Virus record (IMG/VR): IMGVR_UViG_3300029305_011675
Length of the DNA stretch: 64,000 bases
Reading direction: 5' to 3' (one strand)
Source: a virus
Taxonomy: Duplodnaviria; Heunggongvirae; Uroviricota; Caudoviricetes
Under the pieces are notes generated by a model that did no database searches, was not told the origin of the DNA, and saw nothing but the letters and a program-made list of their open reading frames with translations. Position numbers and translations under genes: made by a program. Numbering within the stretch: position 1 is the first letter of the stretch; each line of letters begins with the position of its first letter. Of the stretch, positions 5,597 to 26,195 are shown piece by piece.

Positions 5597-6043
5597 ATGA
5601 GCATTCAAGAAACTGCAAAGCAGAATATGTATGCCGCTATGAAGGCGCACGACAAGCAGAAGAAAGATGCCTATGCAATGCTTTACGACCAACTTAAGAA
5701 GAAAGAAATCGACCTCCGTCACCCACTTACGGACGACGAGGAGATTGCCGTAGTCACAAAGATGGTCAAGCAGTGCAAGGACAGCATTGATTCTGTGCCA
5801 GAAGGCAAAGGTGGAGAATTCATTGAGAAGGTAAAATTCGAAATGGAAATCTATTCACAATTCCTTCCAACTTTGATGACCGAAGATGAAATCGTCGTTG
5901 TCATCAAGGAAACGATGGCAGAGTGTGGCATCGAAACTCTTGATAACAAGTCTCGTGGTTTGCTTATGAAGAACCTTATGCCAAAGGTTAAGGGCAAAGC
6001 AGATGGCAAACTCGTAGCAGACACCGTTAACAAGATGATGTAA
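5597..6043 (+). CDS. yqeY: GatB/YqeY domain-containing protein
   Basis: 148 aa. The pattern MS..E.....AMKA.DK..........LKKKE....H.LTDDE...V..K.VKQ....D......G matches the YqeY family. RBS aaggagg is present. Confidence 0.7.
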   Translation: MSIQETAKQNMYAAMKAHDKQKKDAYAMLYDQLKKKEIDLRHPLTDDEEIAVVTKMVKQCKDSIDSVPEGKGGEFIEKVKFEMEIYSQFLPTLMTEDEIVVVIKETMAECGIETLDNKSRGLLMKNLMPKVKGKADGKLVADTVNKMM

Positions 6044-6044
6044 T

Positions 6045-6135
6045 TGTAAAATAGAAACTTAAACCGAAACATAGAAACTTATTCTGAAACATAGGAAAGT
6101 TCTCTAAAAGTAGGTTTGAAACTTATTCCGAAACA
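6045..6135 (+). repeat. Tn7R-like end: four contiguous ~20-bp putative TnsB-binding repeats (consensus gaaactta-n4-gaaaca)
   Basis: Sites at 6053-6071, 6073-6091, 6093-6110 (degenerate) and 6117-6135, preceded by a terminal 8 bp tgtaaaat. Confidence 0.75.
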
Positions 6136-6164
6136 AATGTAAATAATCATTTAATCTAAAACAA

Positions 6165-6200
6165 AAAATCCCTCTCGTAATGAGAGGGATTTTATTTTTT
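6165..6200 (+). terminator. Rho-independent terminator just inside the transposon end
   Basis: atccctctcgtaatgagagggat + tttatttttt. Confidence 0.75.
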
Positions 6201-6443
6201 AATTATAAAAAACACATTCAATACTTGACTTTTTCAGAAAAAGTTTATATATTCTATATTATTGTTGAAAATTTTACACAAGGTTGGAGAAAGCACTCCG
6301 CACTTTAAAAGCAAATCTGTCATTCTTATTGTATCAAAAAAACATATAAATCAGTCAAAATTTATATTTTCCAGTATGCTTTTCTATAATATAAAACAAA
6401 TATGTGCAATAATTTATACAAAAATTAAGAAGGTGGTGAATCT

Positions 6444-6737
6444 GTGATGCAAATTAAATGTTTTATAAATGACAATTTTCGAACACTCTCTTATCTTTAT
6501 GATATTAAAGGTGAGGATAATCGTGCCCGTATCACACAACAAGAGGTGGCTGACGCTCTTGGAATTAGTCGCTCTACGCTAAACAAAATTATGAATGAAC
6601 TGAAAAAAGAAGGTTATGTCGAACAAGATGGTAACTATATGGGTCGCTATATTGTTACGAATGCAGCCATTTCAGTTATCGAGACATTTAGAAGTATTGA
6701 TAAAAACGATAGAGGAGGCACTTATGACAGAAATTAA
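6444..6737 (+). CDS. Small HTH transcriptional regulator
   Basis: 97 aa. ITQQEVADALGISRSTLNKIMNELKKEGYV is a classic helix-turn-helix. RBS aaggtgg. Overlaps the start of the next gene by 14 nt. Confidence 0.65.
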   Translation: MMQIKCFINDNFRTLSYLYDIKGEDNRARITQQEVADALGISRSTLNKIMNELKKEGYVEQDGNYMGRYIVTNAAISVIETFRSIDKNDRGGTYDRN

Positions 6738-9384: not shown

Positions 9385-9386
9385 AT

Positions 9387-10337
9387 ATGGCTATACATAA
9401 TAAATCTCACAACAATTCTGCACTTATGTCTTTAAATAAAATGAATAAGGACAACATCAAGCATAAGACATCAAAGGACTTTGAGATGCCCGAAAAAAGC
9501 ATTCAACTATTAATGATTCAAGATTGCTTGACTGCATTAAAAGAACTACCAGATAAATCAATCCAATTAATTTGCATTGACCCTCCTTATAATTTGGATT
9601 TGGCAGATTGGGATACATATGATAATTATATGAGTTGGTGTGCTGAATGGTTAAATGAATGTTGGAGAGTTTTGAAAGACGAAGGCAGTTTAGTTGTTTT
9701 TGGTGGCACTCAATTTAGAGATGAAAGAAGCGGCGATTTAACTGAAATTATCTATCATTGTCGCCACAATACTAAATGGAAGTTAGTCAACACAATTGTT
9801 TGGTATTACAAAAATGGAATGTCTGCCCATAGATATTTTGCAAACCGTCATGAGGAAATTATTTGGTTCGTAAAAACCGATAAATATTACTTTGATTTAG
9901 ATTCTGTTAGAGTAAAATATTCAGAAGAAGATTTAAAAAATGCCTTAAAAGATAAGAGACTGAATCCTGAAAATGTTAAAAAAGGCAAAAATCCAACAAA
10001 TGTATGGGAAATAGGTAGATTAAATGGTAATTCGTTAGAAAGAGTTGGACATCCAACCCAAAAACCTTTAGCAGTCATCAGGAGATTAGTTAAAGCATTA
10101 TCATATCCTGGGTCAACCGTCTTGGATTTCTTTGCAGGTAGCGGAACAACAGGTAGAGTGTGTATTGAAGAAGGTAGACACTGTATTCTTATAGATAAAG
10201 GCGAAACAACTACCGATTATTTTAAAAAACATATTGAAAAAATGGAAAAAACAACACTTGCAAAACCCCACCAGTCTGTTGAAACAATTGAAGAATTTTT
10301 CAATTGTGTCGAAGAAGAAACAAATAAAAACAATTAA
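9387..10337 (+). CDS. Beta-class N6-adenine/N4-cytosine DNA methyltransferase
   Basis: Motif IV LICIDPPYN lies upstream of motif I VLDFFAGSGTTG. RBS ggagg. Starts 2 nt after the upstream stop. Confidence 0.8.
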   Translation: MAIHNKSHNNSALMSLNKMNKDNIKHKTSKDFEMPEKSIQLLMIQDCLTALKELPDKSIQLICIDPPYNLDLADWDTYDNYMSWCAEWLNECWRVLKDEGSLVVFGGTQFRDERSGDLTEIIYHCRHNTKWKLVNTIVWYYKNGMSAHRYFANRHEEIIWFVKTDKYYFDLDSVRVKYSEEDLKNALKDKRLNPENVKKGKNPTNVWEIGRLNGNSLERVGHPTQKPLAVIRRLVKALSYPGSTVLDFFAGSGTTGRVCIEEGRHCILIDKGETTTDYFKKHIEKMEKTTLAKPHQSVETIEEFFNCVEEETNKNN

Positions 10338-10661
10338 CACCTTAACTTATTACTGCGAATTTTAAGTTAAATACAAACAAAAATATGGAGTCCGCAATAT
10401 CGGACTCTAAACCAAATATAAAAAAGAAGCCCGCTACTGCGAATAGCGGACTTCCGTATAACAACACTAAAATTAACATTTGTATGACTACCAATCTAAC
10501 AAAAGTGTTTTTTAATGCTGCTTTCTTATTATAGCATTTTCTTATCTAAATGTCAACTCATTTTTGTTAGAAATTCAGTATTCTTATACTTTTGTTAATT
10601 TTGACTAATCTCGTTCCTGCTCGGAACACAAAAATATTAAAATATGATAGGAGTAGATATT

Positions 10662-12812
10662 ATGGATAATATAATGCTAACCGTTGGTAATGTTATTATA
10701 GATGAGCATAGTGGCAAACAATATCGAGTTGTTGCAGTTGTAAACAATGATATTACTTTATGCGAGATGAATACTACGAAGTTTTTACTCTCGTTAATGA
10801 ATAAACAAACCTTGTTCGCACTTGTGGCAACAGGTGAATTAATAATCAAAGTCGAACCACCCATCGTTTTCAACAAGGATGACTTACCAGAGGGTTTTCA
10901 GAAAAAATTCACAATAAGACAACAGATAATGAATGAGGTCCTCAAGGAATATGGACCATCTTATATTGAACTAAACGGTAAAAAACGAGGCAGGACAGTC
11001 AAGGATATAATGAGTAAATATAACTTGGCAAGATGTTCTTTCTGGAGAATATGTACTCAATATTTTCAAAGTGGTCTTCAAGATTATTCGTTAGTTGATT
11101 CGAGATATTTTGGTGCAAATACTGGCAAGACATATAATTATGAGACCAAAACTGGTCGCCCACCAGAATACTCTATGGCATCGGGAATTATTATCACCGA
11201 TGAAATTATCAAGCATTTTGAAGAAGCATTGAAAGATTATAAGTCTGGAAGACACAAATCCATCAAGGATGCTTTTGACAAAATGAATTTGTTGCATTTT
11301 ACAAAAACAGAAATAATTAACGGTCAACCCAGTATTGTTTTATTGCCCATATCAGAAAGACCAACACTCGACCAATTTAGATACTATTGCAACAAACATC
11401 TTACAAACCAAGAAAAAGACTTAATAAAAACATCTGCACTCGAACAAAAGAATAACAAAAGACTTCTTGTAAGCGATTCACTCAATGGTGTAAATGGACC
11501 TGGTGATTTGGTAGAAATCGATGCTTGCGAAGCAGATATATCGTTGGTTTCTGTTATTGACTCATCAAAAACTATCGGCAGACCGATAGTGTACTTTATG
11601 GTTGATGTATACTCTCGCATTATCTTGGCAGTGTCTGTTGCTTTTGATAATAACTCTATGCTTGGTTTATCAAACTTATTTCTAAACCTTGCAGATGATA
11701 AACAGAAGTATTGTGAGAGATACGGAATTAGTTATGAAAACAAAGATATTTGGCCATCAAACATTATTCCCAATCGTGTTCGTGTTGACAAAGGTGCTGA
11801 ATTTAGAAGCAAAGAGTTTGAGAGAATCTGCAATGAACTTGGTATTGAAAGAAATATCGTATTGCCAGGGTGTGGTTCTCTCAAAGGTATTGTAGAGCAG
11901 TCATTTAGACAATTACATCTCAAACAAAATCATCATCTTGAAAATCATGGTCTCATTACCCAAAGACACGATTCCAAACATCATCAAGAGGCGATGTTGA
12001 ATATTGAAGAATATACTAAAATGGTTATTGGTTTTGTTCTAACTCACAACCAACAATGCTTAACAAATTTCCCACTCACAAAAGATATGATTTTGAAGAA
12101 GGTTCAACCCATTCCTGCTTTGTTGTGGAAATATGGCATAAACAACGGTTTCACACCGAGACCAATCCCTTCGCTGCAACAATATCTATTCAATCTTATG
12201 ACACCTATCAATGCCAAAGTAAGCAGAAAAGGTATCAGTCATAAGGAATTATATTATCTAAACACAGAAGATAAAAAACTTGCTCGTGAGATGTTTGATG
12301 CTGGCAACAAAAGAAAAGATTTTGAAGCAAGAATGGATATGAGAGATGTTGGTTCGATTTATTATATCAGAGATAATAAGTTAATGGTCGCCAGACTTAA
12401 CCCGCTAATTCAAGGGAATGCGGAATATGCTGGTATGACGATGAAGGAATACGAAGATTTCCGCAAGGGTAAAAAAGAACTTCTCGCAGCAGGCAAGGTT
12501 AATAACGAAGAATTGTCTGCATTCAATTATGCGATGAACAATGCTATTGTTGAAGAAGCGACAAAACCAATGTTACCTTCTGCAAAAGATATGAGACCTG
12601 CTCGTGAGATTGAAAAGCAGGCAAAATCTAAATCTAATAAAATCAGCAAAAGATTAGAACAACCTAAACTCGAAGCACCAAAAACGGAAGATGTTTTGGT
12701 AGAAGAGTTTATTGAAAAAATAACCGAATGTCCTCCTGCAGAGGAAGTCCCAGTAAAGAAAAATAAGTTAAACACATATAGCAATTGGGACGAAGCATTG
12801 GAAGATTGGTAA
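10662..12812 (+). CDS. tnsB: Tn7 TnsB-like / Mu-type DDE transposase
   Basis: About 717 aa. The core matches TnsB/TniA integrases, e.g. IVYFMVDVYSRIILAVSVAFDNNS and RVRVDKGAEFRS. RBS taggag. Confidence 0.75.
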   Translation: MDNIMLTVGNVIIDEHSGKQYRVVAVVNNDITLCEMNTTKFLLSLMNKQTLFALVATGELIIKVEPPIVFNKDDLPEGFQKKFTIRQQIMNEVLKEYGPSYIELNGKKRGRTVKDIMSKYNLARCSFWRICTQYFQSGLQDYSLVDSRYFGANTGKTYNYETKTGRPPEYSMASGIIITDEIIKHFEEALKDYKSGRHKSIKDAFDKMNLLHFTKTEIINGQPSIVLLPISERPTLDQFRYYCNKHLTNQEKDLIKTSALEQKNNKRLLVSDSLNGVNGPGDLVEIDACEADISLVSVIDSSKTIGRPIVYFMVDVYSRIILAVSVAFDNNSMLGLSNLFLNLADDKQKYCERYGISYENKDIWPSNIIPNRVRVDKGAEFRSKEFERICNELGIERNIVLPGCGSLKGIVEQSFRQLHLKQNHHLENHGLITQRHDSKHHQEAMLNIEEYTKMVIGFVLTHNQQCLTNFPLTKDMILKKVQPIPALLWKYGINNGFTPRPIPSLQQYLFNLMTPINAKVSRKGISHKELYYLNTEDKKLAREMFDAGNKRKDFEARMDMRDVGSIYYIRDNKLMVARLNPLIQGNAEYAGMTMKEYEDFRKGKKELLAAGKVNNEELSAFNYAMNNAIVEEATKPMLPSAKDMRPAREIEKQAKSKSNKISKRLEQPKLEAPKTEDVLVEEFIEKITECPPAEEVPVKKNKLNTYSNWDEALEDW

Positions 12813-12825
12813 GGAGGTATTCGAT

Positions 12826-14433
12826 ATGGATATAAAATATAATTATTACGAATGTGAAAAATTCGAGACACAATATGAAGATTATGATTTTGAAGAAAAC
12901 AAAATCGTAAATGCCAGATATGTTAAGGCACTTGTTGAATGTGATATCGGTAACCCATACATAGAGGCATTGCCACATCCGAGACACGAAGATGATGTAA
13001 GAGATGCATACACAAAACATCTTTTAACATACGACTACGATAAGGTCAAAAATATGACCAAATTAGAAAAGATGTTGCAAGTTAGCACTTTAAGGCAGAT
13101 AAGATTTCCTCTTACATTCCACAAGAATTTGGAATTTTCATTCTATAATGCTTTAATTACATCTTATAGGTCAAGGAAAATCAAACCCATAAACGATAAA
13201 CCAATTGAATATATTTCAAACGATATAGAGACAGAAACCAACTGTGTTTTATATGGTAATTCTGCCGATTCTACAAATGCAGGATTCTCTCTCATAGGTT
13301 ATTCTGGTTGTGGCAAAAGTTCCGCAATCCAAACATTGCTTTCGCATTATCCACAAACCATTATACATCGTGTAGATGAGTTTACACAATATGTCCAGAT
13401 TGTTTATTTGGTTGTAAACTGTGTACCCAATAGTAATTTCTCTGCATTATATGAAGGCATTGGCGATGCTGTTGATAAGGCGCTCGGCAATACTCAACCT
13501 GTTTATGCAAAAGAGATTGCAAAAACAACCACACTTGGCAGAAAAATGGAGAAGGTTCGTGAGTTAATAGAAAGATTTGGTATCGGAATGATTATCTTTG
13601 ATGAGATACAACTCATAGATTTTGATAGAACAAAAGAAAGTTCTTTTGAATCTTTAATGACTTTATCTAACAGAACAAAAGTCGCTATCGCTGTTGTAGG
13701 TACAGAAGATGCCAGAGACAAAATGTTTAAGGAATTAAGAACCACAAGAAGAATTGGAACAGTAATCAACGGTAATATGTATTGTGAGAACAAAATGTTT
13801 TTTACATTCCTTGTCACTCAACTATTTAACTATCAATGGTTTGATGAACCAATTGATGTAACAGAGGAACTTGTAGATGCCCTCTACGATGTCACCAAAG
13901 GCATTGTGGACCAACTTATAGGAATATACTCCTGTATGCATTACGACTATTTAGAGCGAAAGAAACGCCCCGTAATCGATGCGAAATATGTCTATGATAT
14001 AGCACAAAGATATTACCCAGGAATTCAGAATGTTCTTGCGGATTTGGAATCAATTGAAGCGGCAAGAAAACTTATGGGCATCAGACAAGATGCAGAAGTT
14101 AGAGTCGCTTCTATCATTGATAATGCAAAGCAGGAAAAAGAAGCAGAAGACTTGTTACAAAAACAAAATAAAGCAGTCGATAAAATGCTAATGTTGAAAA
14201 ATATTGTAGCAAATATCACTGCCCTATATGATGAATATTCTCTTTCTCAAATTGAAAAGGCATTTAATTTAGTTATAAAACAGACCAAAGACAATCCTAA
14301 ATCCGAAAGAGAAATGAGTCGTTTGGTTCTTGATAAACTTACTCACAGAAGAAATACCAAATCTGCAGATAAAAAGAAAAAGTCGAGTATCCCAGAAATG
14401 GATACAACGACTATGAGAGATTTTATTGGATAA
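12826..14433 (+). CDS. tnsC: TnsC-like AAA+ ATPase (transposition regulator)
   Basis: Walker A is GYSGCGKSS and Walker B is GMIIFDEIQ. It sits immediately downstream of tnsB, with RBS aaggagg. Confidence 0.75.
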   Translation: MDIKYNYYECEKFETQYEDYDFEENKIVNARYVKALVECDIGNPYIEALPHPRHEDDVRDAYTKHLLTYDYDKVKNMTKLEKMLQVSTLRQIRFPLTFHKNLEFSFYNALITSYRSRKIKPINDKPIEYISNDIETETNCVLYGNSADSTNAGFSLIGYSGCGKSSAIQTLLSHYPQTIIHRVDEFTQYVQIVYLVVNCVPNSNFSALYEGIGDAVDKALGNTQPVYAKEIAKTTTLGRKMEKVRELIERFGIGMIIFDEIQLIDFDRTKESSFESLMTLSNRTKVAIAVVGTEDARDKMFKELRTTRRIGTVINGNMYCENKMFFTFLVTQLFNYQWFDEPIDVTEELVDALYDVTKGIVDQLIGIYSCMHYDYLERKKRPVIDAKYVYDIAQRYYPGIQNVLADLESIEAARKLMGIRQDAEVRVASIIDNAKQEKEAEDLLQKQNKAVDKMLMLKNIVANITALYDEYSLSQIEKAFNLVIKQTKDNPKSEREMSRLVLDKLTHRRNTKSADKKKKSSIPEMDTTTMRDFIG

Positions 14434-14448
14434 TAGGAGGAATAAAGT

Positions 14449-16575
14449 ATGAATAAATTCATTCCTATGATTGTTGCCCCTTACCCAGACGAATTCTTAT
14501 ATTCTTGGGTAATGAGATTAGCAAACGCCAATAAACTTTCCGTTCCTCTGTTTTTTGAAACCTATTTCGGTAAAGAATACTTTAGCAAGTTTTTACTTCC
14601 CATAGATATTAGAAAAGGTTTTGGTTCATTCTATAATTTTCTTAATTGTACAACCCCTGTTTCAGAATTATATTTAAGTTTATCTACTCTACAATTTGAA
14701 TTATTGTCTTATCCACCCAAGATGCAGACAAAGTTCATAAATCCTATTTTCAGAAAAGAAAATAACATATATACCATAAAAGAATATTTAATGACAGATT
14801 TCCGTATGTGTAAAGAATGTATGAAGGAAGATAAGGAATTATTCGGAGAAACTTACATTCATCGTTCTCATCAGTTAAATGGTGTTTGTGTTTGTCATAA
14901 ACATCACACCCCATTATTTATTCAAAAAAGGAATTCGAAATACATTTACAAAGATGAAACTTTGGAACAAATGGAGTTAGCAGACACTTTTGAAAAAGAG
15001 TGCGAATATGCTGATTATACCCATTTTCTGTTAGAAAACAATTTTCAATCTAATTCTAATGATTTAATGAAAATCATAATCGATAAATTAGGGATATTAG
15101 AATCAAATAAAAAGGAATTGGTCATAAAAATAAACGAAATACTCAAAAATGGCAAAACTTATTCCAAAGAAAGTTTGTGGTCTAAAAACGATTGTAACTT
15201 TCCAATAAAAGATTTTATTAAAGTATTGATGTATGCATACCCAAATCCAAAAGACATATTAGTAAAAGCGAAGAAATTTTCTCTAATCATTGAACAAAAA
15301 TGTGATAAGTGCGGTAAGACTTTTTACACAACAGAACAAGCACTTAAAGATGGATGGGGTTGTACATTTTGTGATGATAAACTTAAAGAAATAGATTTGA
15401 TAAAGAGATTGATTAAAATTGGTGGAAACGGAGAATATGTTTTCAAAGGTTTCCTACCAACTAAAACTAAAAACAGCATACGTCTATTCCATAAACCTTG
15501 TGGCGAAGAACACCTTACCAGTTTAAATAACTTCGTTTTTAATCACAAAAGATGCAAGTGTGGTATAAAAATGCAAAGAAAAGAAGCAGAAAAAGAGATG
15601 AAAAAACACCCACAATTCAAGTTGGTTGAATTTAACGGTGCTACATTTCCTGCAAAGTTCCGTCACAATGATTGTGGTAGAGAGTTTGAATATAAATCAT
15701 TCAGATGGTTTTTAAAATGGCCTAAATGTCCTCATTGTCAAGGATTTACAAAAGAAAATCTTGAACAAGAAATAAGGGATGTTGTTGGGGATGAATATAC
15801 GGTTTGTGATATTGGTTCTATTCGTAAAGATAAAGTCACCATTAGGCACAACATTTGTGGATGCGCACACGAATATGTGCCATACAATTTTCTTATTGGT
15901 GCCAGATGTCCCAAATGCTACAATCAAGTGTCGTTAAGGGAATTGAAAATAATGTTAAAAGAATATTCTGATGATAGATATGAAATTGTAGGAAAAAGAA
16001 AAGAAAAATGTATTATATATGACAAGGAAACAGACGAAACCATTGAGTTGACAAATAGACATATATTGCAAGAGATTAAAAGACCAACACCATCTTCCTT
16101 ATTACCTGTAAAAAATCGCAAATCCATTCAAAGTCCTTTGTCAACTTGGGATTTTTGGTATCAACTTTGTATTGAATACAAAAACGAGTTTGGACATCTG
16201 TGTCCAGTGATGAATGAAACATACAAAGGATATAATCTATATAGTTGGTTGATTGTAACCAGACAATATTACAGAAAAGGACAACTTTCACAAGAAAAGA
16301 TACAAGCACTTAAAGATATAGATTTTGTATTCGATACTGCATTTTATAAGTGGGAACAAAGGTTTAATGAATATAAAGTATTTGTTAATGAAACAGGAAA
16401 TTATTTTCCTTCAGTCAAAGAAATACACAATGGAAATAAAGTGGGTCAGTGGTTTTTAAGGCAACGAAAAGCGAAAAACAGAGGTAGTTTAAAACCAAAG
16501 TATGAAAAAATATTATTGGAATATTATTCAGATTTTTTTAAAAAACATCCAAGATACAAAAACAATACCATTTAA
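14449..16575 (+). CDS. tniQ: TniQ/TnsD-like target-selector protein
   Basis: The N-terminus MIVAPYPDEFLYSWVMRLANAN is the TniQ signature. Multiple CxxC/CxxH zinc-finger clusters. 708 aa, closer in size to TnsD. Confidence 0.7.
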   Translation: MNKFIPMIVAPYPDEFLYSWVMRLANANKLSVPLFFETYFGKEYFSKFLLPIDIRKGFGSFYNFLNCTTPVSELYLSLSTLQFELLSYPPKMQTKFINPIFRKENNIYTIKEYLMTDFRMCKECMKEDKELFGETYIHRSHQLNGVCVCHKHHTPLFIQKRNSKYIYKDETLEQMELADTFEKECEYADYTHFLLENNFQSNSNDLMKIIIDKLGILESNKKELVIKINEILKNGKTYSKESLWSKNDCNFPIKDFIKVLMYAYPNPKDILVKAKKFSLIIEQKCDKCGKTFYTTEQALKDGWGCTFCDDKLKEIDLIKRLIKIGGNGEYVFKGFLPTKTKNSIRLFHKPCGEEHLTSLNNFVFNHKRCKCGIKMQRKEAEKEMKKHPQFKLVEFNGATFPAKFRHNDCGREFEYKSFRWFLKWPKCPHCQGFTKENLEQEIRDVVGDEYTVCDIGSIRKDKVTIRHNICGCAHEYVPYNFLIGARCPKCYNQVSLRELKIMLKEYSDDRYEIVGKRKEKCIIYDKETDETIELTNRHILQEIKRPTPSSLLPVKNRKSIQSPLSTWDFWYQLCIEYKNEFGHLCPVMNETYKGYNLYSWLIVTRQYYRKGQLSQEKIQALKDIDFVFDTAFYKWEQRFNEYKVFVNETGNYFPSVKEIHNGNKVGQWFLRQRKAKNRGSLKPKYEKILLEYYSDFFKKHPRYKNNTI

Positions 16576-16658
16576 TTAAGAGTTTGGCGATAAAAAGAAA
16601 CTCGTTATTTTGATAAAAAAACAGGGGTGCCTTTTTTAATTGCTTTAATTCAATTCTA

Positions 16659-16687
16659 TTGACAGAATGGCATATTTATGTTATAAT
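16659..16687 (+). promoter_or_regulatory. Sigma-A promoter TTGACA-17-TGTTATAAT for the cargo ORFs
   Basis: ttgacagaatggcatatttatgttataat, followed by a ~120-nt leader that contains a 15-bp long-range helix (16716-16731 pairing with 16778-16792). Confidence 0.6.
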
Positions 16688-16809
16688 AAAATTAGAATTC
16701 CGCAAGTTTTAACTACTTATTCTTTTGAAGATTAACCTGAAGTAGAGGTTATAACTGGATTTCCACACACACGAATCTCTTCAAAAAATAAGAAACGAGG
16801 TTAAAAAAT

Positions 16810-17247
16810 ATGTTATTTGAATATGATTATTGCGGAATTATGTTTAGAAATCCTTTTGCATATGATAATAAACAAAATTATCATTGCGCGACAATGCTGT
16901 TAAATGCATTGTCATCGTATATTACCACATATCGTCCAAAGGAAGAACACACAAGCGAAAGTATTTACAAATTGCTTGTCGCCAATTCAGAACAAAGACA
17001 CATTGGTGATTCTCCTTTTGCTATCAATGGAAAAGGTAGTCTTTTAGATGCAATTTTTGAAGAACTCCGAATGAAAGTTCCCTGTTGTATCGAATTAGAA
17101 TATTATAAAATATTTAAAGCATTTCCATTGAAACAACAACTTTCAGTTATTGCCACCTTGATGGCAGAAAATTTTGGTTTAAGAGAAAAGGCAATCGAGA
17201 ATTTTCTTAAAAAATCAAAAGACCCGTTTGTAACAAACAAAGAATAA
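16810..17247 (+). CDS. Hypothetical protein (transposon cargo)
   Basis: 145 aa. RBS gaaacgagg. No recognisable motif. Confidence 0.5.
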   Translation: MLFEYDYCGIMFRNPFAYDNKQNYHCATMLLNALSSYITTYRPKEEHTSESIYKLLVANSEQRHIGDSPFAINGKGSLLDAIFEELRMKVPCCIELEYYKIFKAFPLKQQLSVIATLMAENFGLREKAIENFLKKSKDPFVTNKE

Positions 17248-17308
17248 AATTAATGGCATACGATTGGTTGTGTGTGCAATCGTATGCTATTTTTTAGGAG
17301 AATTAGTT

Positions 17309-18241
17309 ATGAGAGAAAATTTAAAACAACTTATAGGCGAAGAAATTAGTGGTGTAGCAAAGTGTGTCAGAAATGGACATCGTTGCCTATTGAGAGATAT
17401 CGTAGTAGACGACTCTTGTTCTTTTGACCCAGACTTATATTTAGCAATAGAACAACACTTGTGGACAGATTCTAATGTTATTGAGAAAAACAATATAAAA
17501 CGATATTCTTATTTTCGTTTCGCTGGCTCTGTATATGAGTATAAAAGAGAAAACGACACAACAGATTATTCTATCGAATTAAAAGAAGTTGAACCGATTG
17601 ATACTTTTAAGTATTTAAAAAGCAGAATTCAGCAATGCTATTGTAGACATGTGTGTTTATTTTTTGAACACTGCTATTATAACTGCTGTGCACCACAATC
17701 AGAAAAAGATAATTTTGTTATTCCTGTATTAGAAAAGATGTTTTTAGAAGAAGCAGTCAACGATTTTGCAGAAGAATATGAATTTTCACCAAAGGATTTT
17801 CTAAAAGAAATCAGGAACAAAACTCTATTTAAAATTAGTGATGCACATATTTATCTTGGTATGAATAAGGCAGATTTTATCAAAAGATATAAGTCCAACA
17901 TTATTGAGGGCAATGAGTTTGGATATAAAATGAAACCTATTGAAGTAGATAAAATCTTCTTAACTCCAGTTATTCATTTTATGAAAAACGGGATGTGCGA
18001 TGCAATTGCATTTGAGACTAATCAAGATAATTTAAATACTGCAATTCAATATATAAATAAAAAGTATAACACAAATGTTACACTTTTTAATCACAAAGAA
18101 TTGATTGACTTATTCAAAGCAGAGATGGAATTTGGAGATATTATTTTTGGTTATTCAAAAGCACAAGAAAATCATCCTGCTTCCATTGTTATGAGTTTGT
18201 CAACACCAATATCGACATATTTCTCGGTTGGCTTACAATAA
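17309..18241 (+). CDS. Hypothetical protein (transposon cargo)
   Basis: The internal ATG has RBS taggag. 310 aa, Cys-containing, no recognisable motif. Confidence 0.5.
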   Translation: MRENLKQLIGEEISGVAKCVRNGHRCLLRDIVVDDSCSFDPDLYLAIEQHLWTDSNVIEKNNIKRYSYFRFAGSVYEYKRENDTTDYSIELKEVEPIDTFKYLKSRIQQCYCRHVCLFFEHCYYNCCAPQSEKDNFVIPVLEKMFLEEAVNDFAEEYEFSPKDFLKEIRNKTLFKISDAHIYLGMNKADFIKRYKSNIIEGNEFGYKMKPIEVDKIFLTPVIHFMKNGMCDAIAFETNQDNLNTAIQYINKKYNTNVTLFNHKELIDLFKAEMEFGDIIFGYSKAQENHPASIVMSLSTPISTYFSVGLQ

Positions 18242-18303
18242 AATATTTTTATATAAACGGAAACTTATAAAAATAAAAAACAATTTATAACACTATTAAG
18301 TTT

Positions 18304-18439
18304 TGTTTCAAAACAAGTTTCACAACATTGTAACTATCAAAGACATTATATTGCTTTGTTTTATAATAAGTTTCTAATAAATCACGAAGAAAACTATGAA
18401 AAAGCATAGTTCTGTTTCAAAATAAGTTTATAATCAACA
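18304..18439 (-). repeat. Tn7L-like end: three spaced inverted copies of the ~20-bp repeat plus the terminal 8 bp
   Basis: tgtttcaaaacaagtttcac (18304-18323), tgttttataataagtttct (18358-18376) and tgtttcaaaataagtttat (18413-18431). Each is the reverse complement of gaaactt...gaaaca. The element ends ...atcaaca at 18439. Confidence 0.75.
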
Positions 18440-18480
18440 GTAATTGTTAAATGACAATTTAATTTGAAACTAAAATTAAG

Positions 18481-18513
18481 AAACCCCGCATAACGATGCG
18501 GGGTTTCTTGTCG
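18481..18513 (+). terminator. Rho-independent terminator (native yqeY terminator displaced by the insertion)
   Basis: aaaccccgcataacgatgcggggtttcttg. Confidence 0.75.
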
Positions 18514-21387: not shown

Positions 21388-21957
21388 GTGATTTTATGGA
21401 CTGTACAACCAGTTGAAGTTTATGAGAAAATTTTAGAAACAGGTAAATATGTTTGTGATGGTAGGCGAACCGATAAATTTTTTCGAGACAGATATAAATG
21501 GTTGTGCGAAGAAATGAAAATCAAAATCGGCAAACCTCCTAAAAATGTAACATACCCTGTTTGGGCATGGCATACAAGGGACTTCAAAAGAAAGAAACCA
21601 GACCTTCGCTCTTCATCCGAACACGGACGCCGTGGCGACAAAATGGTTTGTATGGAAATTGAAGTACCAGATAAAGATGTTCTCCTGACAGACTTCGATG
21701 CTTGGCACTTTGTTCTCAATAAATGGTATTTAAACACCAATTGTTGGGATGAAGAAACCTTTGACAAAGACCATGAATGGTTAGATAGTCTTTCGAAAGA
21801 AGAAAGAGAACATGTCATTGAAGAATCTTGGCAAGGAATTTATAATATTGAACCCAAAGAAACGGACTGGTGTGCTCGTGGGAAATGGGTACAAGCAACC
21901 TTTTGGGAACTCAAAAAAGAATATATCAAAAAAGTACAGTTTTTTACTGTTAGATAA
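21388..21957 (+). CDS. DUF3841-like protein (tentative); GTG start
   Basis: MILWTVQPVEVYEKILETGKY resembles the DUF3841 N-terminus. RBS aaaggag. Confidence 0.4.
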   Translation: MILWTVQPVEVYEKILETGKYVCDGRRTDKFFRDRYKWLCEEMKIKIGKPPKNVTYPVWAWHTRDFKRKKPDLRSSSEHGRRGDKMVCMEIEVPDKDVLLTDFDAWHFVLNKWYLNTNCWDEETFDKDHEWLDSLSKEEREHVIEESWQGIYNIEPKETDWCARGKWVQATFWELKKEYIKKVQFFTVR

Positions 21958-21960
21958 CAC

Positions 21961-21994
21961 AAAAAGCAACTTCTTTTCGAAGTTGCTTTTTTAG
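21961..21994 (+). terminator. Rho-independent terminator
   Basis: aaaaagcaacttcttttcgaagttgctttttt. Confidence 0.8.
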
Positions 21995-22026
21995 TACCCA
22001 AATCAGATACTTTTCATAAAAACAGG

Positions 22027-22055
22027 TTGACATTGAGAATACTTTGTGGTATAAT
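22027..22055 (+). promoter_or_regulatory. Sigma-A promoter ttgacattgagaatactttgtggtataat
   Basis: Consensus -35 and an extended -10. Confidence 0.7.
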
Positions 22056-22089
22056 AATATTAAAGAAAATACACAAAGGAGAATGAATT

Positions 22090-22722
22090 ATGAAGTTATA
22101 TATCTTTTCTTCTGTAAACGGTAAGATTTCTCGTGAGGAAAAGGAAGTTATTGAAAAGAACAAGATTTTTGTTGAGAAAGTTGGCATTTCTGAACGACAT
22201 TATGCAAAGAGTATGCTTGATGTTCCAGAGACCACTATTTCTTCTGTTTCTATGATTTCTTTAAATGGTCGTATTGACCACTTTGCGCAGGAAGTCTTAA
22301 AGGCGCAAAAGAATGAAATCGACAAACTTGAGAGAAAGCTCGCAGAAAAGAAAAATACACTAATTCGCTTTAAGATGAATTATGCTGGTGTATTGGAGTG
22401 TCGTGTTGAAAACGGCATTTATAATGCAGTTTCTACTCTTGAATTTAAGTACAATGGCGATATGGTCTCTGCCACCAAAGAATCTGTTGAAAATAAAACT
22501 CCCGTTCAGATTCCCCTACATCACATTGTGGACGGTGAGTTATTCTTTGAGATGATGGAAGAACACCCTTTCCTTTCCGTCTATAATATTTTTGTAAACG
22601 GAAATGCTACCAACCTTGCATTAGAAGGTTACGAAAACGGTAAGGAAAACGAATGTGTAATTTCTATGGAAAAGTTAAAGAAAATGCACGAAAAAACCAA
22701 GTTAGAAATTGATTGCGAATAA
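22090..22722 (+). CDS. Hypothetical protein
   Basis: 210 aa. RBS aaaggag. Confidence 0.55.
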   Translation: MKLYIFSSVNGKISREEKEVIEKNKIFVEKVGISERHYAKSMLDVPETTISSVSMISLNGRIDHFAQEVLKAQKNEIDKLERKLAEKKNTLIRFKMNYAGVLECRVENGIYNAVSTLEFKYNGDMVSATKESVENKTPVQIPLHHIVDGELFFEMMEEHPFLSVYNIFVNGNATNLALEGYENGKENECVISMEKLKKMHEKTKLEIDCE

Positions 22723-22735
22723 GGAGGAAATTTAA

Positions 22736-23683
22736 ATGGGTTGCGATATTCATATTATCACAGAAATCAGAAAAAATGGCAAATGGCAATGGGTAAAAGA
22801 AATCCCAGAATCATTTGACAGCAGAAATTATGGTCTTTTTTCAGTTCTTGCAGGTGTAAGAAACTCTTTCAACATCAAGGGCTTTGAAGCGAAGGGTCTC
22901 CCCGAAGACATCAGTGCAATGAAATTTGACTTCGAAACTTACACAAACAGAGCAAAAGAAAGATTTTATGACGACAATGATGGTCAAATCCTCTTTGTTG
23001 ACAAAGACGGTAATTACCACGAACCTTCTGCTGTTGAGAAAACTCATCTCACAAAAGAGGAATATGAGACACTCAATGTAAAACAAAGAACAGAAGTTGA
23101 TACATTTGATAAGCAGTATAATTCTCTCGGTTATACTCAAAGCGGAAATCAGACACCCGATTATTATGTTCGAGATGCTTATGCAAATGGTGGTCGCTTT
23201 GAACGGATTCCTCACTATAAGTATTACCCCAATATTGAAGCATTTCTAAAAGATTACTACGAAGACGACTGGGATGAAGAAATGCAAGATTATGGTCGCT
23301 GGAGAGTAAACTTCGAATACTGCGGTCCTCACGGCGATTACCACACCCCAAGTTTCCTTTCTCTCCACGAACTCATCACTGCTGATTTGAAGGACTATTA
23401 TTCTGACAAATACAAGATGGATGTTGCTTTTTATGAAGCATTCAAGAGAATGGGCGGAACTCTTCCCGAAGGTATGACCGTTCAGGAATTCACTCCTGAA
23501 ACTTTGCAGGATGTTTTTCAGTCTGCACTTTGCCCAGTTATTTTGGTAGTCTGGGAAAAGGACGAAGAGGCAAAGAAAGAAACTGCACTTTACTGTGGTA
23601 TCGAAGAAATGAAAGAAATCGCAAAGAAGTACGGCATCGACGACCCTAACGACATTCGTATTGTATTTGCATTCGATAATTAA
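22736..23683 (+). CDS. Hypothetical protein, 'MGCDIH...IRIVFAFD' family (paralog B)
   Basis: Same terminal and internal motifs as 20480..21370. RBS aaggagg. Confidence 0.6.
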   Translation: MGCDIHIITEIRKNGKWQWVKEIPESFDSRNYGLFSVLAGVRNSFNIKGFEAKGLPEDISAMKFDFETYTNRAKERFYDDNDGQILFVDKDGNYHEPSAVEKTHLTKEEYETLNVKQRTEVDTFDKQYNSLGYTQSGNQTPDYYVRDAYANGGRFERIPHYKYYPNIEAFLKDYYEDDWDEEMQDYGRWRVNFEYCGPHGDYHTPSFLSLHELITADLKDYYSDKYKMDVAFYEAFKRMGGTLPEGMTVQEFTPETLQDVFQSALCPVILVVWEKDEEAKKETALYCGIEEMKEIAKKYGIDDPNDIRIVFAFDN

Positions 23684-23708
23684 ATGTGTTAATACTATGT
23701 CTTATTAC

Positions 23709-23749
23709 AGAACCACTTTCTTTGAAAGTGGTTCTTTTGTATGTTTTTT
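23709..23749 (+). terminator. Rho-independent terminator
   Basis: gaaccactttctttgaaagtggttc + ttttgtatgtttttt. Confidence 0.8.
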
Positions 23750-23760
23750 GTATTTTCTGG

Positions 23761-23789
23761 TTGACATTCGCAGTGTTTTATGGTATAAT
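23761..23789 (+). promoter_or_regulatory. Sigma-A promoter ttgacattcgcagtgttttatggtataat
   Basis: Consensus -35 and an extended -10. Confidence 0.7.
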
Positions 23790-23816
23790 TATATTAAAGA
23801 AAAAGGAGGAATTGAT

Positions 23817-26195
23817 ATGAAAAAAGCACATTTTGAAGCACTTTTGGAGGTAAATAATTTACCCACCAAACTTATCACTAAAATGATTGGAAAGAATATT
23901 TTCTTCCCGATTTTTAAGACTTCGCAAAAAACAATTATTGTCCCTAATGGCAAAAAAGAGAAGAAAACCGATTGCATTTGTTCCAACTGCAGTCATAGGT
24001 TCTCTATCTCTGGCGAAGTATCTACTCTCGTCTGCCCAGAATGTGGAAGCAATGATACCTATTACTCTCCGAGAGCAATTAGCGACCTAAAGGAAGACTT
24101 TACTTTTTCAAAAGATGTAGATATTTATATTTGCACCGAAGAAGATAGCAAGAGTTTCTTCCATGCAGACTTCCAGTATGGAAATTCCGACAGTCGTTAT
24201 CGTAATTCCCATGCTACTTTCGTATTAGACAAAGCAGTTGTCGAAGATGAAACCTATTATATTCTTCACGAATACAAAGGATTTTTCAATTTTGACGAAA
24301 CAACTGGTCAGAGAAATCTTATGTTCCTTGATGAAGGAAATATGATTATCTTTAGCAAGTCGGAAATTGCAAATGTTCGTTCTTACAGACGGTCAACCGC
24401 ATCCTTTTATAATTCCTATACAACAACCTATGACCGTAAGAAAATTATTTTGGCAGAGGATGCTTTATTCAATGAGTTTTTCGCAATGACTACTGGTTAT
24501 AATGCGAACAACATCAAAGAACTGTTAAGCAAAACCAAAACCAATGGTTTTTACAGTATCGACCTTGCAAAATTAGATAATGTTCGTTATATGATTAAAG
24601 AGAATAGACCTGTCAGCAAGTCTGCAAATAAGCGAGAGATGTTAGTAAAGTCCATTTACGAAACTCTCCCGAAACCCACTCCTTTCACTGTCAAAAACGA
24701 CCATATTTATTACACCATTACGGAGATTGATGAAATCGCAAACTCACAGACCATTAAATATATTTGTCCCGACTGTGGCGGTATTAATTCTGTTGTAATT
24801 AACAGATACCAAAGTGCTGCCGAAAGAGAGACTATGGAGTTCTCTTGCGACCATTGCGGTGTAGTCATTCCTTTCAATAGGATGAAGGATTTGACAACCA
24901 CAAACAATATCAAACATTCGGTCAATGTTGTTTGCGACTATAATAACGGTATTATTATTTTTGATGCCCTTTACCGTTGTTTGGCAGAAAACGGAAGAAA
25001 TTTATTTATCCCGATTACCGAAAATCATTATCCCAAAACTATTATTGTAATTGATAAAGAGTTTGACAAGGATAACATTATGGCAAACACCACAATTCTT
25101 CGTGGCAATGGTTATGGTTTATCTTATTCTATGGCAAAAACTTTCAAAATCAACTACAATTCATCTATCCCTTATATTCACAATATGGCAACCAATTTCA
25201 ATATGCAATGGTCTGCCATTGATAGAATTAACGAGCAAAGTAGATATCGTGATTCTGCAAGTACAGACACAGTTGCTGCATTTGCACTGCTTTACAGAAA
25301 ATATCCCGTGCTCGAAAAATTCATAAAAGAAGGACAAACATCTATCCTTTCTAACATTTTGGAAAAATTTGATTGGATTACACTTTCTCCAGAAGTAAAG
25401 TTTGACCTTGAAAAGAATGATGTTGCATCTGCTTTGAGAATTTCTAAAAGTTGTGTAAAAATTCTTAACTCGCTTTCTCCCGATAGACGAGTTGATGCAC
25501 ACAACTCTCTGCAATTACTCTATAACCTTGATAACAACATCACTGCTGAAAATTATCAGTATATTACAAACAACTACATTTCTGTATATAAAGTAGCAGA
25601 TATTTGTAGAAAATTTGGTCTTTCCATTCATCAAATTTGTGAATATATTGAACGAGTTCGTCTTACACAATGTGTAAATCCCCAAACAGCAACTTCTGAA
25701 TGGGCAGACTATTTGGATGCCTGTGAAGTTATTGGTTCTGACCTAAATGACAGACGAGTGAAATACCCCGCTGCTCTTCGTACCGAACACGATAAGGTTG
25801 TTTACAAAAAGAAAATTATTGAAGACGAACAGAGCGAAGAAAAATTCCAAAAAACTACCGAAGAATACGGCAAAAAGTATTCCCACAAAGGTCAGAAGTA
25901 TATGATTACCTATCCGAAAACACTGAAAGATTTGTTTGAGGAAGGTAGATTGCTCAACCACTGTGTTGGTTCTTATGGAGATGCCATCAAGCGAGGGGAT
26001 AGTGTCATTCTCTTTGTAAGAAAAGTTGACGAACCTGACACTCCTTACTTCACTCTTGAAGTAAAACCCGCTTACAATGCAATCACCCAGTTTTATGGAC
26101 ATTCTGACCATCCCCCTCACAGAGTAAGGGATAAAGAACTTATTGAATATATCAGTAAGTGGGCAAAAAATAACGATATTCGTTATTCCAAGTAA
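23817..26195 (+). CDS. PcfJ-like domain protein with zinc-ribbon motifs
   Basis: Internal ATG with RBS aaaggagg. CxxC...CxxC pairs (CSNCSH..CPECGS; CPDCGG..CDHCG). The C-terminus LKDLFEEGRLLNHCVGSYGDAIKRGDSVILFVR resembles the PcfJ domain. Confidence 0.5.
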   Translation: MKKAHFEALLEVNNLPTKLITKMIGKNIFFPIFKTSQKTIIVPNGKKEKKTDCICSNCSHRFSISGEVSTLVCPECGSNDTYYSPRAISDLKEDFTFSKDVDIYICTEEDSKSFFHADFQYGNSDSRYRNSHATFVLDKAVVEDETYYILHEYKGFFNFDETTGQRNLMFLDEGNMIIFSKSEIANVRSYRRSTASFYNSYTTTYDRKKIILAEDALFNEFFAMTTGYNANNIKELLSKTKTNGFYSIDLAKLDNVRYMIKENRPVSKSANKREMLVKSIYETLPKPTPFTVKNDHIYYTITEIDEIANSQTIKYICPDCGGINSVVINRYQSAAERETMEFSCDHCGVVIPFNRMKDLTTTNNIKHSVNVVCDYNNGIIIFDALYRCLAENGRNLFIPITENHYPKTIIVIDKEFDKDNIMANTTILRGNGYGLSYSMAKTFKINYNSSIPYIHNMATNFNMQWSAIDRINEQSRYRDSASTDTVAAFALLYRKYPVLEKFIKEGQTSILSNILEKFDWITLSPEVKFDLEKNDVASALRISKSCVKILNSLSPDRRVDAHNSLQLLYNLDNNITAENYQYITNNYISVYKVADICRKFGLSIHQICEYIERVRLTQCVNPQTATSEWADYLDACEVIGSDLNDRRVKYPAALRTEHDKVVYKKKIIEDEQSEEKFQKTTEEYGKKYSHKGQKYMITYPKTLKDLFEEGRLLNHCVGSYGDAIKRGDSVILFVRKVDEPDTPYFTLEVKPAYNAITQFYGHSDHPPHRVRDKELIEYISKWAKNNDIRYSK

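Follow-up and report, generated by a model that had tools for sequence, protein, structure and literature searches.

The stretch of DNA analysed here (the window; 64,000 nt, IMG/VR virus record IMGVR_UViG_3300029305_011675, Caudoviricetes) contains a complete Tn7-like transposon, and between the tniQ gene of this transposon and its left end only two genes are present, ORF1 and ORF2 (open reading frames 1 and 2). This pair, the sole left-end cargo of the transposon, forms with its promoter and leader a compact cassette that had been singled out in an initial annotation made from the sequence alone, and it is considered here together with its leader RNA, the hairpin that separates the two genes, its homologues in other mobile elements and the transposon that carries it. 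Coordinates without a locus name are those of the window, and features are on the plus strand unless stated otherwise.

The two-gene cassette and its homologues

The cassette begins with a promoter of the sigma-70/sigma-A type (16659-16687), already recognised in the initial annotation, that consists of TTGACA (16659-16664), a 17-nt spacer and TGTTATAAT (16679-16687). The site scores 12/12 and has an extended -10 TG. Within the 8.8 kb scanned only one other site is perfect, although promoter-like sites overall are no commoner there than in shuffled sequence. It is followed by a 5' untranslated region (UTR) of ~116 nt (16694-16809, the start inferred from the position of the -10 element), with a structured core at 16707-16806; by the Shine-Dalgarno (SD) sequence of ORF1, read from the sequence as GAGG (16797-16800), 9 nt upstream of the ATG; by ORF1 itself (16810-17247, 145 aa); by a terminator-like hairpin (17252-17296); and by ORF2 (17309-18241), which encodes 310 aa from the ATG that all homologues use and whose ribosome-binding site (RBS) AGGAG (17296-17300) lies directly after the hairpin. 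The cassette is insulated from tniQ and served by a promoter of its own.

Homologues of the two proteins are found in few places. In a set of 5.8 billion sequences the ORF1 and ORF2 families comprise six clusters each, every one derived from a Logan or ENA metagenome assembly, and the cassette family amounts to about 15 loci among ~15 billion proteins, all from uncultured low-GC bacteria. None of the homologues has a Pfam domain or a name in any source; tblastn against PLSDB plasmids and INPHARED phages gave no cassette match, a search for related loci in IMG/VR found none, and two surveys of Tn7 elements (PMC8649781, PMC10293859) describe nothing like the leader or the cassette. Two loci (L007/L008) are the same locus as the window. 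L001 is another Tn7-like element, in which tnsA-tnsB-tnsC-tniQ (918 aa)-ORF1-ORF2 are followed by a DUF4238 gene and a type I restriction-modification (R-M) system. On the short contigs L010-L014 the cassette follows an unrelated, non-TniQ gene and its terminator, and in L003/L004, L006 and L005 it is present without tns genes, after clpP (L003/L006) or yqeY (L005). In L003 and L005, ~20-nt repeats TTGTTGCAWTTAGAGTTGTATGTCAACA occur only around the cassette (L003 486-650 and 2250-2437; L005 ~5783-5800 and 7506-7545); they are ~54 nt apart, like the left-end sites of the window, and end in ...TCAACA, like the left end of the window. By these sequence features, L003/L004, L006 and L005 are decayed or miniature Tn7-like elements with clpP and yqeY as attachment sites. 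A distant version of the cassette (148 and 334 aa) is carried just upstream of parAB by L016/L017, a plasmid-like contig that encodes ParA, ParB, a DnaG-type primase, SocA, ImmA and a cytosine methylase. In L016, the 1-kb gap between the ORF2 homologue and parA (11030-11990) also contains AACTATTGCAGTATTTTGA-like repeats in at least 8 copies, which may be parS sites or iterons, and a GT-rich repeat block (GTGAGGGTG...) lies upstream of the leader (9040-9170). Among the loci found, ORF1 and ORF2 are exclusively associated with mobile elements, as the initial annotation had expected.

The sequences of the cassette and of the transposition genes next to it have diverged to different extents. Between the window and L001, TnsB, TnsC and TniQ are 39%, 43% and 26% identical, ORF1 and ORF2 are 61% and 75% identical, and the leader is 99% identical. 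Since the cassette has not co-diverged with TnsB, TnsC and TniQ, it is a module exchanged among mobile elements, and the pair is a mobile cassette, neither a transposition gene nor ordinary element-specific cargo. Thus the Tn7 cargo position assigned in the initial annotation is retained, and the notion of cargo peculiar to one element is not, since the cassette is common to divergent elements and a plasmid-like contig.

Both reading frames, annotated from the outset with lengths of 145 and 310 aa, are real genes under purifying selection (omega 0.13-0.19). By the Nei-Gojobori method, the comparison of the window with L001 gives dS 1.58 and dN 0.30 (synonymous and non-synonymous divergence) for ORF1, and dS 1.18 and dN 0.15 for ORF2. 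The closer pair formed by the window (16810-17247) and L010 (274-705) gives dN 0.16 and dS 0.15 for ORF1, an omega of ~1 from a small sample of 145 codons, and an omega of ~0.2 for ORF2; from these values, ORF1 may be under relaxed or diversifying selection, as in proteins of molecular conflicts. The ORF2 copies of the tns-less loci (L003 ~1462, L005 ~6718, corresponding to ~17494 in the window) share the same 1-nt deletion, AAAAGAAAA to A8, which causes a frameshift at about codon 62. Purifying selection is seen on both sides of this frameshift (omega 0.13 before and 0.17 after it), and the pattern suggests transcriptional or translational slippage at A8 rather than a dead gene.

In Pfam, NCBIfam, PADLOC and PHROGs no usable family was found for either protein, with the exception of a weak VirD4-like match of ORF1, which covers positions 131-237 of the 442 of family model NF045973 at 21 bits, against a family cut-off of 250. 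ORF1 is mostly helical, and there is moderate evidence that it resembles the all-alpha domain (AAD) of VirD4-type coupling proteins. No Pfam T4CP/AAA domain was found in ORF1, which has neither the Walker A/B nucleotide-binding domain nor the usual membrane anchor by which a type IV coupling protein is defined. For ORF2 there is weak evidence of an OB-like domain at the N-terminus, followed by a C4 zinc knuckle, a helical linker and, at the C-terminus, an alpha/beta domain. The knuckle, C-x3-C-x5-C-x3-C (C112, C116, C122, C126), follows the OB-like domain and is invariant. AlphaFold models of the two proteins are poor (mean pLDDT, the predicted local distance difference test score, 56) and confident only at ORF2 residues ~170-260, for which the best structural matches are the immunity proteins RhsI1, YdcD and BtiO. 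Sequence searches of the PDB with three profiles and a fold search of BFVD gave nothing significant. The initial statement that the proteins have no recognisable motifs was therefore too strong, given the AAD-like segment of ORF1 and the invariant knuckle of ORF2, and the remote homology and structure searches recommended at that time yielded a moderate likeness for the first protein and a weak one (OB and immunity folds) for the second. The accompanying suggestion of a defence or anti-defence role, still conceivable, found no support in PADLOC, Pfam or PHROGs; among the known anti-phage defence systems modelled in PADLOC-DB, ORF1 and ORF2 match 0 families at E≤1.

The leader RNA and the hairpin between the genes

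The leader adopts a three-way-junction fold in the 5' UTR, which we regard as very probably real. Its closing helix P1 (16716-16731 with 16778-16792; 15 bp with one bulged C) is present in both the minimum free energy (MFE) and the centroid folds and ends 4 nt before the GAGG. This is the long-range helix just 5' of the RBS that was reported in the initial annotation, where it was the only element of the leader; the helix stands, and the single-helix view is replaced by a P0/P1/P2/P3 junction. P2 (16733-16738 with 16746-16751) carries the invariant loop L2, GAAGUAG (16739-16745); P3 (16756-16758 with 16763-16765) is a small hairpin; and the 12 nt of J3/1 (16766-16777) are single-stranded. A further helix, P0, in which 16707-16714 (UUUUAACU) pairs with 16799-16806 (GGUUAAAA), overlaps the SD and is tentative; it is present in the MFE structure of every variant and in L016 is built from different sequences.

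The core of the leader is conserved to a degree that sets it apart from everything around it. Nucleotide identity of the window to L001, L003 and L005, respectively, is 49, 38 and 39% at the 3' end of tniQ, 83, 31 and 80% in the promoter, 67, 61 and 50% in the 22 nt after the start site, 99, 98 and 96% in the leader core (16716-16809), 67, 64 and 61% in ORF1, 78, 70 and 71% in ORF2, and 44, 41 and 38% in the downstream segment. The promoter is kept in L001, L005 and L010-L014 (80-97% identity) and is absent in L003. The near-identical stretch runs from exactly the first base of P1 up to the ATG, with sharp edges in every locus, and the leaders of the window and L001 differ by a single substitution in 94 nt next to genes with a saturated dS of 1.2-1.6. 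Every part of the leader is thus far more constrained than coding sequence. The GAGG never varies among window-type leaders and is found in L016 and L028 as well, and the P1 helix, whose conservation in related elements the initial annotation had made a test of its proposal, is kept in all 8 of the 8 distinct homologous leaders.

Support for the fold comes mainly from its comparison between lineages. A covariance model built from seven window-type leaders only, with L016 left out, finds the L016/L017 leader at full length (42.5 bits, E about 3e-6) and nothing beyond it in the 246 kb searched, ten chance JGI pattern matches included. In the alignment fitted to the model, 98.9% of cells are paired and seven pairs are changed on both sides, compared with 0.9 +/- 0.8 in shuffles (0/500 reach this number) and at most one in slid controls, so that the covariation sought among homologous leaders since the initial annotation is indeed present. 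Since this count comes from a model-fitted alignment, P2 was recounted on a structure-blind MAFFT alignment, in which three of its six pairs are changed on both sides, a number reached by 1 of 500 shuffles, with slid controls again at one or below. From the window to L016 the P2 changes are U-A to A-U, A-U to G-C and C-G to U-A around an identical loop; P1 keeps its sequence and the position of its bulge and gains one U-A pair, and P3 is a different hairpin. The L016 leader reads CUUAUUAUUUUUGAAAAG-AGACUU-GAAGUAG-AAGUCU-CGCCU-GUCAC-UAUU-GUGAU-...-CUUCUUCAAAAAAAUAAG and, folded alone, gives the same junction as the window leader (z = -3.1). P3 also shows a compensatory change (G-C to A-U) in L005, where UGG-AUUU-CCA becomes UGA-GUUU-UCA, and an extra base in its loop in L010-L012. 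In L028 (ORF2 37% identical) the P1 3' strand, the AAUAAGAA segment and the RBS are kept, and the 5' half of the leader lies off the contig. The junction strands of the window and L016 are entirely different (J2/3, UAAC vs CGCCU; J3/1, CACACACGAAUC vs GCAUAUAACUUC); common to both leader lineages are the P1 duplex sequence, the L2 loop and the AAUAAGAAA-SD tail.

The leader has the attributes of a cis-regulatory 5' UTR, namely a position between promoter and RBS, the coding strand, covariation, and strand-specific U-G wobble pairs (P1 of L014; P0 of the window). Searches of Rfam 15 gave no match at the gathering threshold in the window, and only noise for the leaders of the window (E≤10) and L016 (E≤1). 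The exact leader core has 0 matches in JGI metagenomes and IMG/VR; a stem-degenerate pattern matched once among GTDB representative genomes, by chance, inside a Psychrobacillus coding sequence; and none of the 10 matches of a structure-aware pattern in JGI metagenomes has P2 complementarity or a covariance-model score. The leader is a candidate new structured RNA family, previously undescribed.

Several other readings of the leader were considered and rejected. A pseudoknot of L2 with a CUACUU segment 5' of P1 is not conserved in L001, L010 or L016. A GAUU/AAUC hairpin that might form around the CA run instead is disrupted in L005, where P3 is compensated, and Rfam lends no support to a hammerhead-like or other ribozyme reading of CUGAAGUAG. 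A six-codon frame, UUG AAG AUU AAC CUG AAG UAG (MKINLK; 16728-16748), runs through the 5' strands of P1 and P2 and stops in L2, and L016 has a version of equal length (MKRDLK; ~9314-9334). As the cause of the GAAGUAG conservation this mini-ORF was rejected, since it has no SD and the non-coding 3' arm of P2 covaries; judging by these features we take it to be coincidental.

The hairpin between the genes has a 15-bp stem (17252-17266 with 17277-17291) and an invariant loop, GUUGUGUGUG (17267-17276), and is followed by UAUUUUUU; its folding energy is -20 kcal/mol (z = -3.7). Over eight loci 98.1% of cells are paired and four pairs are changed on both sides. It is the plus-strand RNA that forms this structure, since several of its U-G wobbles correspond to A-C mismatches in the complementary strand. 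A stable stem-loop with a direct U-tract on the transcribed strand is what defines an intrinsic terminator or attenuator, and unrelated hairpins with U-tracts stand at the same position in L016 and L028. We infer that the hairpin would act as a partial terminator that attenuates ORF2 relative to ORF1. In L016, a full terminator called by the scanner is followed by a new promoter for the ORF2 homologue; the two genes are therefore separate transcription units, and the conserved unit is the leader with ORF1. The single-stranded CACACACAC of the leader (16764-16772, J3/1) is complementary to UGUGUGUG in the hairpin loop (17269-17276), ~500 nt away. Both segments are invariant across window-type loci, an A-to-G change in L003 still allows pairing as G-U, and L016 and L028 have no such complementarity; the two segments may interact as distant loops or share a protein-binding motif.

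The carrier transposon and its surroundings

The transposon occupies 6045-18439 (12,395 bp), with bounds that follow from its TGT (6045) and ACA (18439; ...TCAACA) termini, its terminal repeats and a 5-bp target duplication, GTAAT (6040-6044 and 18440-18444). Three 18-nt repeats, GAAACTTAnnnnGAAACA, form the right end (6054-6071, 6074-6091 and 6118-6135) immediately past the yqeY stop codon, and three inverted copies, TGTTTCAAAAYAAGTTTC (18304-18321, 18357-18374 and 18413-18430), lie downstream of ORF2 in the left end (18304-18439, with the second GTAAT copy at 18440-18444). The transposase-binding repeats are close-packed at the right end and spaced at the left end, as in Tn7. A right end just upstream of tnsB (10481-10610) was considered and rejected in favour of the true end at 6045-6135. 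With both ends and the duplication mapped, the position of the cassette as cargo downstream of tniQ at the L-like end, proposed in the initial annotation, is established. The insertion point is the yqeY stop codon, and the original yqeY terminator is now displaced to 18478-18509. An attachment site at yqeY is absent from the two Tn7 surveys (PMC8649781, PMC10293859), and a literature search found no paper that ties Tn7-like elements to this gene.

From right to left end, the transposon contains R-M cargo, tnsB, tnsC, tniQ and the cassette. Pfam places rve on the TnsB-like protein (10644-12812), TniB/AAA_22 on the TnsC-like protein (12826-14433) and TniQ and HA on the third (14449-16575), and HTH_TnsB is recorded on an L007 gene identical to tnsB of the window. 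A DDE/rve transposase, an AAA+ regulator and a TniQ/TnsD selector in one operon, together with TGT...ACA inverted termini, multiple repeats and a 5-bp duplication, identify the element as Tn7-like. A tblastn search with L001 TnsA found no match in the window, and none of the ORFs from the right end to tnsB has a TnsA domain, which makes the element a tnsA-less Tn7-like relative. Its TniQ ends in helicase-associated repeats (HA, PF03457; E 3e-21), and the 918-aa TniQ of L001, 26% identical, has a different C-terminal half, which suggests a different target-recognition module.

The R-M cargo, which occupies the interval from the right end to tnsB instead of the left end, encodes a ResIII-helicase protein (6616-9384), which strongly matches the PADLOC model of type IV restriction endonucleases (E 7e-77), and an N6/N4 methyltransferase (9387-10337), which strongly matches type II methyltransferases. 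In a different frame, a helix-turn-helix-like peptide (...QQEVADALGISRSTLNKIMNELKKEGY...; ~6445-6700), possibly a small, C-protein-like regulator, is encoded across the start annotated for the 922-aa ResIII ORF. In the 300-nt gap upstream of tnsB, the second perfect promoter (TTGACA, 17-nt spacer, TATAAT, with TG) lies on the minus strand (10556..10528), points away from tnsB and is antisense to the methyltransferase gene; two hairpins (10388-10407 and 10425-10455) read as minus-strand terminators, and the promoter could give rise to an antisense or divergent regulatory transcript. In host DNA close to the transposon (21388-26195), a DUF3841 protein and a PcfJ-like-domain protein of 844 aa are encoded among several ORFs without Pfam domains. 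The PcfJ-like family is named after a gene of the pCF10 conjugation operon, and the region may be a remnant of a conjugative element beside the insertion site.

Interpretation, alternatives and related systems

With moderate confidence we propose that the cassette is a self-contained, horizontally mobile two-gene operon, carried as the sole left-end cargo of a 12.4-kb tnsA-less Tn7-like transposon, in which ORF1 is controlled by the leader and ORF2 is attenuated. Transcription from the consensus promoter would produce the ~116-nt 5' UTR, folded into a structured RNA ahead of ORF1, and the leader is probably a cis-regulator of this gene. As P1, extended by P0, ends at or overlaps the SD, the fold could gate ribosome access to ORF1 or mRNA stability in cis; transcription attenuation within the leader is unlikely, since no U-tract follows P1. 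Because the P1 sequence and L2 are conserved and the junction nucleotides are not, the likely effector would be a protein that reads helix and loop rather than a small molecule. As a candidate nucleic-acid binder, ORF2 could itself be this effector, which would amount to autoregulation like that of T4 gp32; that the leader is bound by a protein or serves autoregulation is a tentative suggestion, which we would sooner doubt than accept. Since ORF1 resembles a substrate-docking AAD and ORF2 a binder of single-stranded DNA or RNA, the pair may, on a speculative view, act on the relaxase-bound single strands of conjugative DNA transfer for whichever mobile element carries the cassette. Among possible functions, one related to conjugation or single-stranded DNA is that to which we incline, and it is, in our judgement, rather doubtful.

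Several results weigh against parts of this proposal. Single-sequence folding z-scores are modest for the leader (-1.5 to -2.3) and weak across window-type leaders (-1.2 to -2.3), so the evidence for the leader is comparative and not thermodynamic, and the covariation reflects few evolutionary events, as the leaders represent two fully independent lineages and half of a third (L028). The unpaired probability of the SD in the ensemble is 0.34-0.51 in window-type leaders, not below controls with shuffled upstream sequence, and 0.01 in L016; robust SD sequestration in window-type leaders is thus unsupported at the ensemble level, and occlusion of the SD, a prediction from folding, is plausible and not established. 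The separate transcription units of L016 tie the leader to ORF1 and not to ORF2, which weakens the idea of autoregulation by ORF2. The poor AlphaFold models make the fold matches only suggestive, the ORF1 profile does not retrieve full-length coupling proteins at database-wide significance, and no relaxase or type IV secretion system gene is seen beside the cassette.

The main rival is a toxin-antitoxin (TA) or stability module, an addiction system in which ORF1, made in excess, would neutralise ORF2, the leader and the attenuator would set the ratio of the two, and loss of the cassette would be harmful. We think this unlikely. It would fit the survival of an intact cassette, promoter included, in two independently decayed tns-less mini-elements (L003, L005), the location of the L016 cassette in a plasmid maintenance region directly upstream of parA-parB, the presence in all three lineages of a terminator-like hairpin that would keep ORF2 expression lower than that of ORF1, the rapid evolution of ORF1 (omega ~1, window vs L010) next to a constrained ORF2, and the reported enrichment of TA modules among Tn7 cargo (PMC8649781). 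However, neither protein shows a toxin or antitoxin domain in Pfam, NCBIfam, PADLOC or PHROGs that would assign it to a type II TA family, the OB-like domain, zinc knuckle and immunity-protein-like domain of ORF2 are binding modules and not enzymatic toxin folds, and selection persists on both sides of the frameshift in the mini-element ORF2, unlike in an inactivated toxin.

Improbable, on the same evidence that favours a protein effector, is a riboswitch, in which a small molecule or ion would bind at the junction and alternative P0/P1 pairing would serve as the switch for ORF1 translation. The near-invariance of almost all nucleotides in window-type copies is typical of aptamers, the closing helix of the three-way junction abuts the SD in an arrangement (P0/P1) that resembles an expression platform, and sequence duplications that could permit alternative pairing are present (UGAAG in the P1 5' strand and L2; UUAACC upstream of P1 and in P2). 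Against this reading, J2/3, J3/1 and P3 differ between the lineages, and a shared P1 duplex and L2 argue against a conserved ligand pocket; moreover, the downstream genes are neither metabolic nor transport genes, and no Rfam class was matched.

In Tn7, tnsE lies immediately after tnsD/tniQ, and TnsE targets conjugal DNA. ORF1 and ORF2 could by analogy be accessory transposition proteins that act as TnsE does, selecting a second kind of target and directing the element into conjugating plasmids. This would agree with the identical position directly after tniQ in two different Tn7-like elements, with the resemblance of ORF1 to the docking domain of coupling proteins and with an OB-like ORF2 that could bind single-stranded DNA. 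Such a role is highly unlikely, since the pair has not co-diverged with the core (ORF2 75% and ORF1 61% against TnsC 43% and TniQ 26%), is found on the plasmid-like L016, which has no tns genes, is preceded in L010-L014 by a gene other than tniQ, is transcribed from its own promoter in insulation from tniQ, and has no detectable similarity to TnsE that would place it in that family. Least credible is a non-functional origin of the leader conservation by recent recombination or gene conversion that spread one allele, which the movement of the cassette between elements and the fairly conserved promoter (80-83%) would allow, but which would have to hit the same 94 nt independently in at least 4 contexts, with edges that in each locus fall where the structure starts and at the ATG, next to 22 nt of only 50-67% identity, and which cannot produce the compensatory changes by which L016 keeps the fold.

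For the mobile operon proposed here, the movement of the cassette between differing transposition machineries and a plasmid-like element, and its persistence after decay of the carrier, suggest a function useful to mobile elements generally. The leader, strongly constrained, covarying and absent from Rfam 15, is a concrete target for structure probing and for a search for its partner. If the similarity of ORF1 holds, this protein would be a free-standing version of the substrate-selecting domain used in conjugation, and an obvious candidate for interfering with or exploiting conjugation. A bolder idea, which we consider improbable, is that leader RNA, ORF2 and ORF1 work as one circuit by which conjugative DNA transfer is sensed or intercepted. 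In it, ORF1 would serve as a decoy or adaptor for relaxase-DNA substrates whose usual docking partner is a VirD4-type coupling protein; the ligand of ORF2 would be either the leader RNA or the single strand being transferred; and the leader would couple expression of the pair to transfer. Were this the case, the transposons and plasmids that carry the cassette would hitch-hike on other conjugative elements or block them, by a mechanism analogous to those of Tn7 TnsE and of fertility inhibition and unrelated to either. Independently of function, the analysis defines a complete tnsA-less Tn7-like element with an attachment site at yqeY.

With Tn7 and Tn7-like elements (Benler et al. 2021, PMC8649781) the transposon shares the tnsB-tnsC-tniQ core, the TGT/ACA termini, TnsB-type repeats, the 5-bp duplication, site-specific insertion just past a conserved gene and the presence of R-M cargo; it differs in having no tnsA and in the location of this cargo between right end and tnsB. 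The ORF1 family matches NF045973 where the AAD of VirD4/TrwB, described for coupling proteins in PMC7431656, is expected, but at 145 aa and without a nucleotide-binding domain, Walker motifs or a transmembrane segment ORF1 is not a coupling protein. The best structural match to ORF2 ~170-260 is to immunity proteins of polymorphic toxins with a double-wing/BLIP-like fold (RhsI1, YdcD, BtiO), from which ORF2 differs by the absence of sequence similarity and of an adjacent toxin gene and by its extra OB-like and zinc-knuckle N-terminal module. Among RNAs, the three-way-junction riboswitches for purines, TPP (thiamine pyrophosphate) and comparable ligand classes are similar in having a P1-closed junction near the expression platform, as well as in the very high constraint seen among window-type copies, but differ in that the junction nucleotides of the leader are unconserved between lineages, its genes have no metabolic link and no covariance model matches it. 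The protein gp32 of phage T4, which contains an OB domain and a zinc site, binds the leader of its own gene 32 mRNA. The leader described here has no sequence or Rfam relationship to that of gene 32 or to ribosomal-protein leaders, it precedes ORF1 and not the OB-like ORF2, and its binding by a protein is putative; like them, it is a structured element directly 5' of the SD, strongly conserved relative to coding sequence, and its operon encodes in ORF2 a candidate nucleic-acid binder with an OB-like domain and a zinc site.

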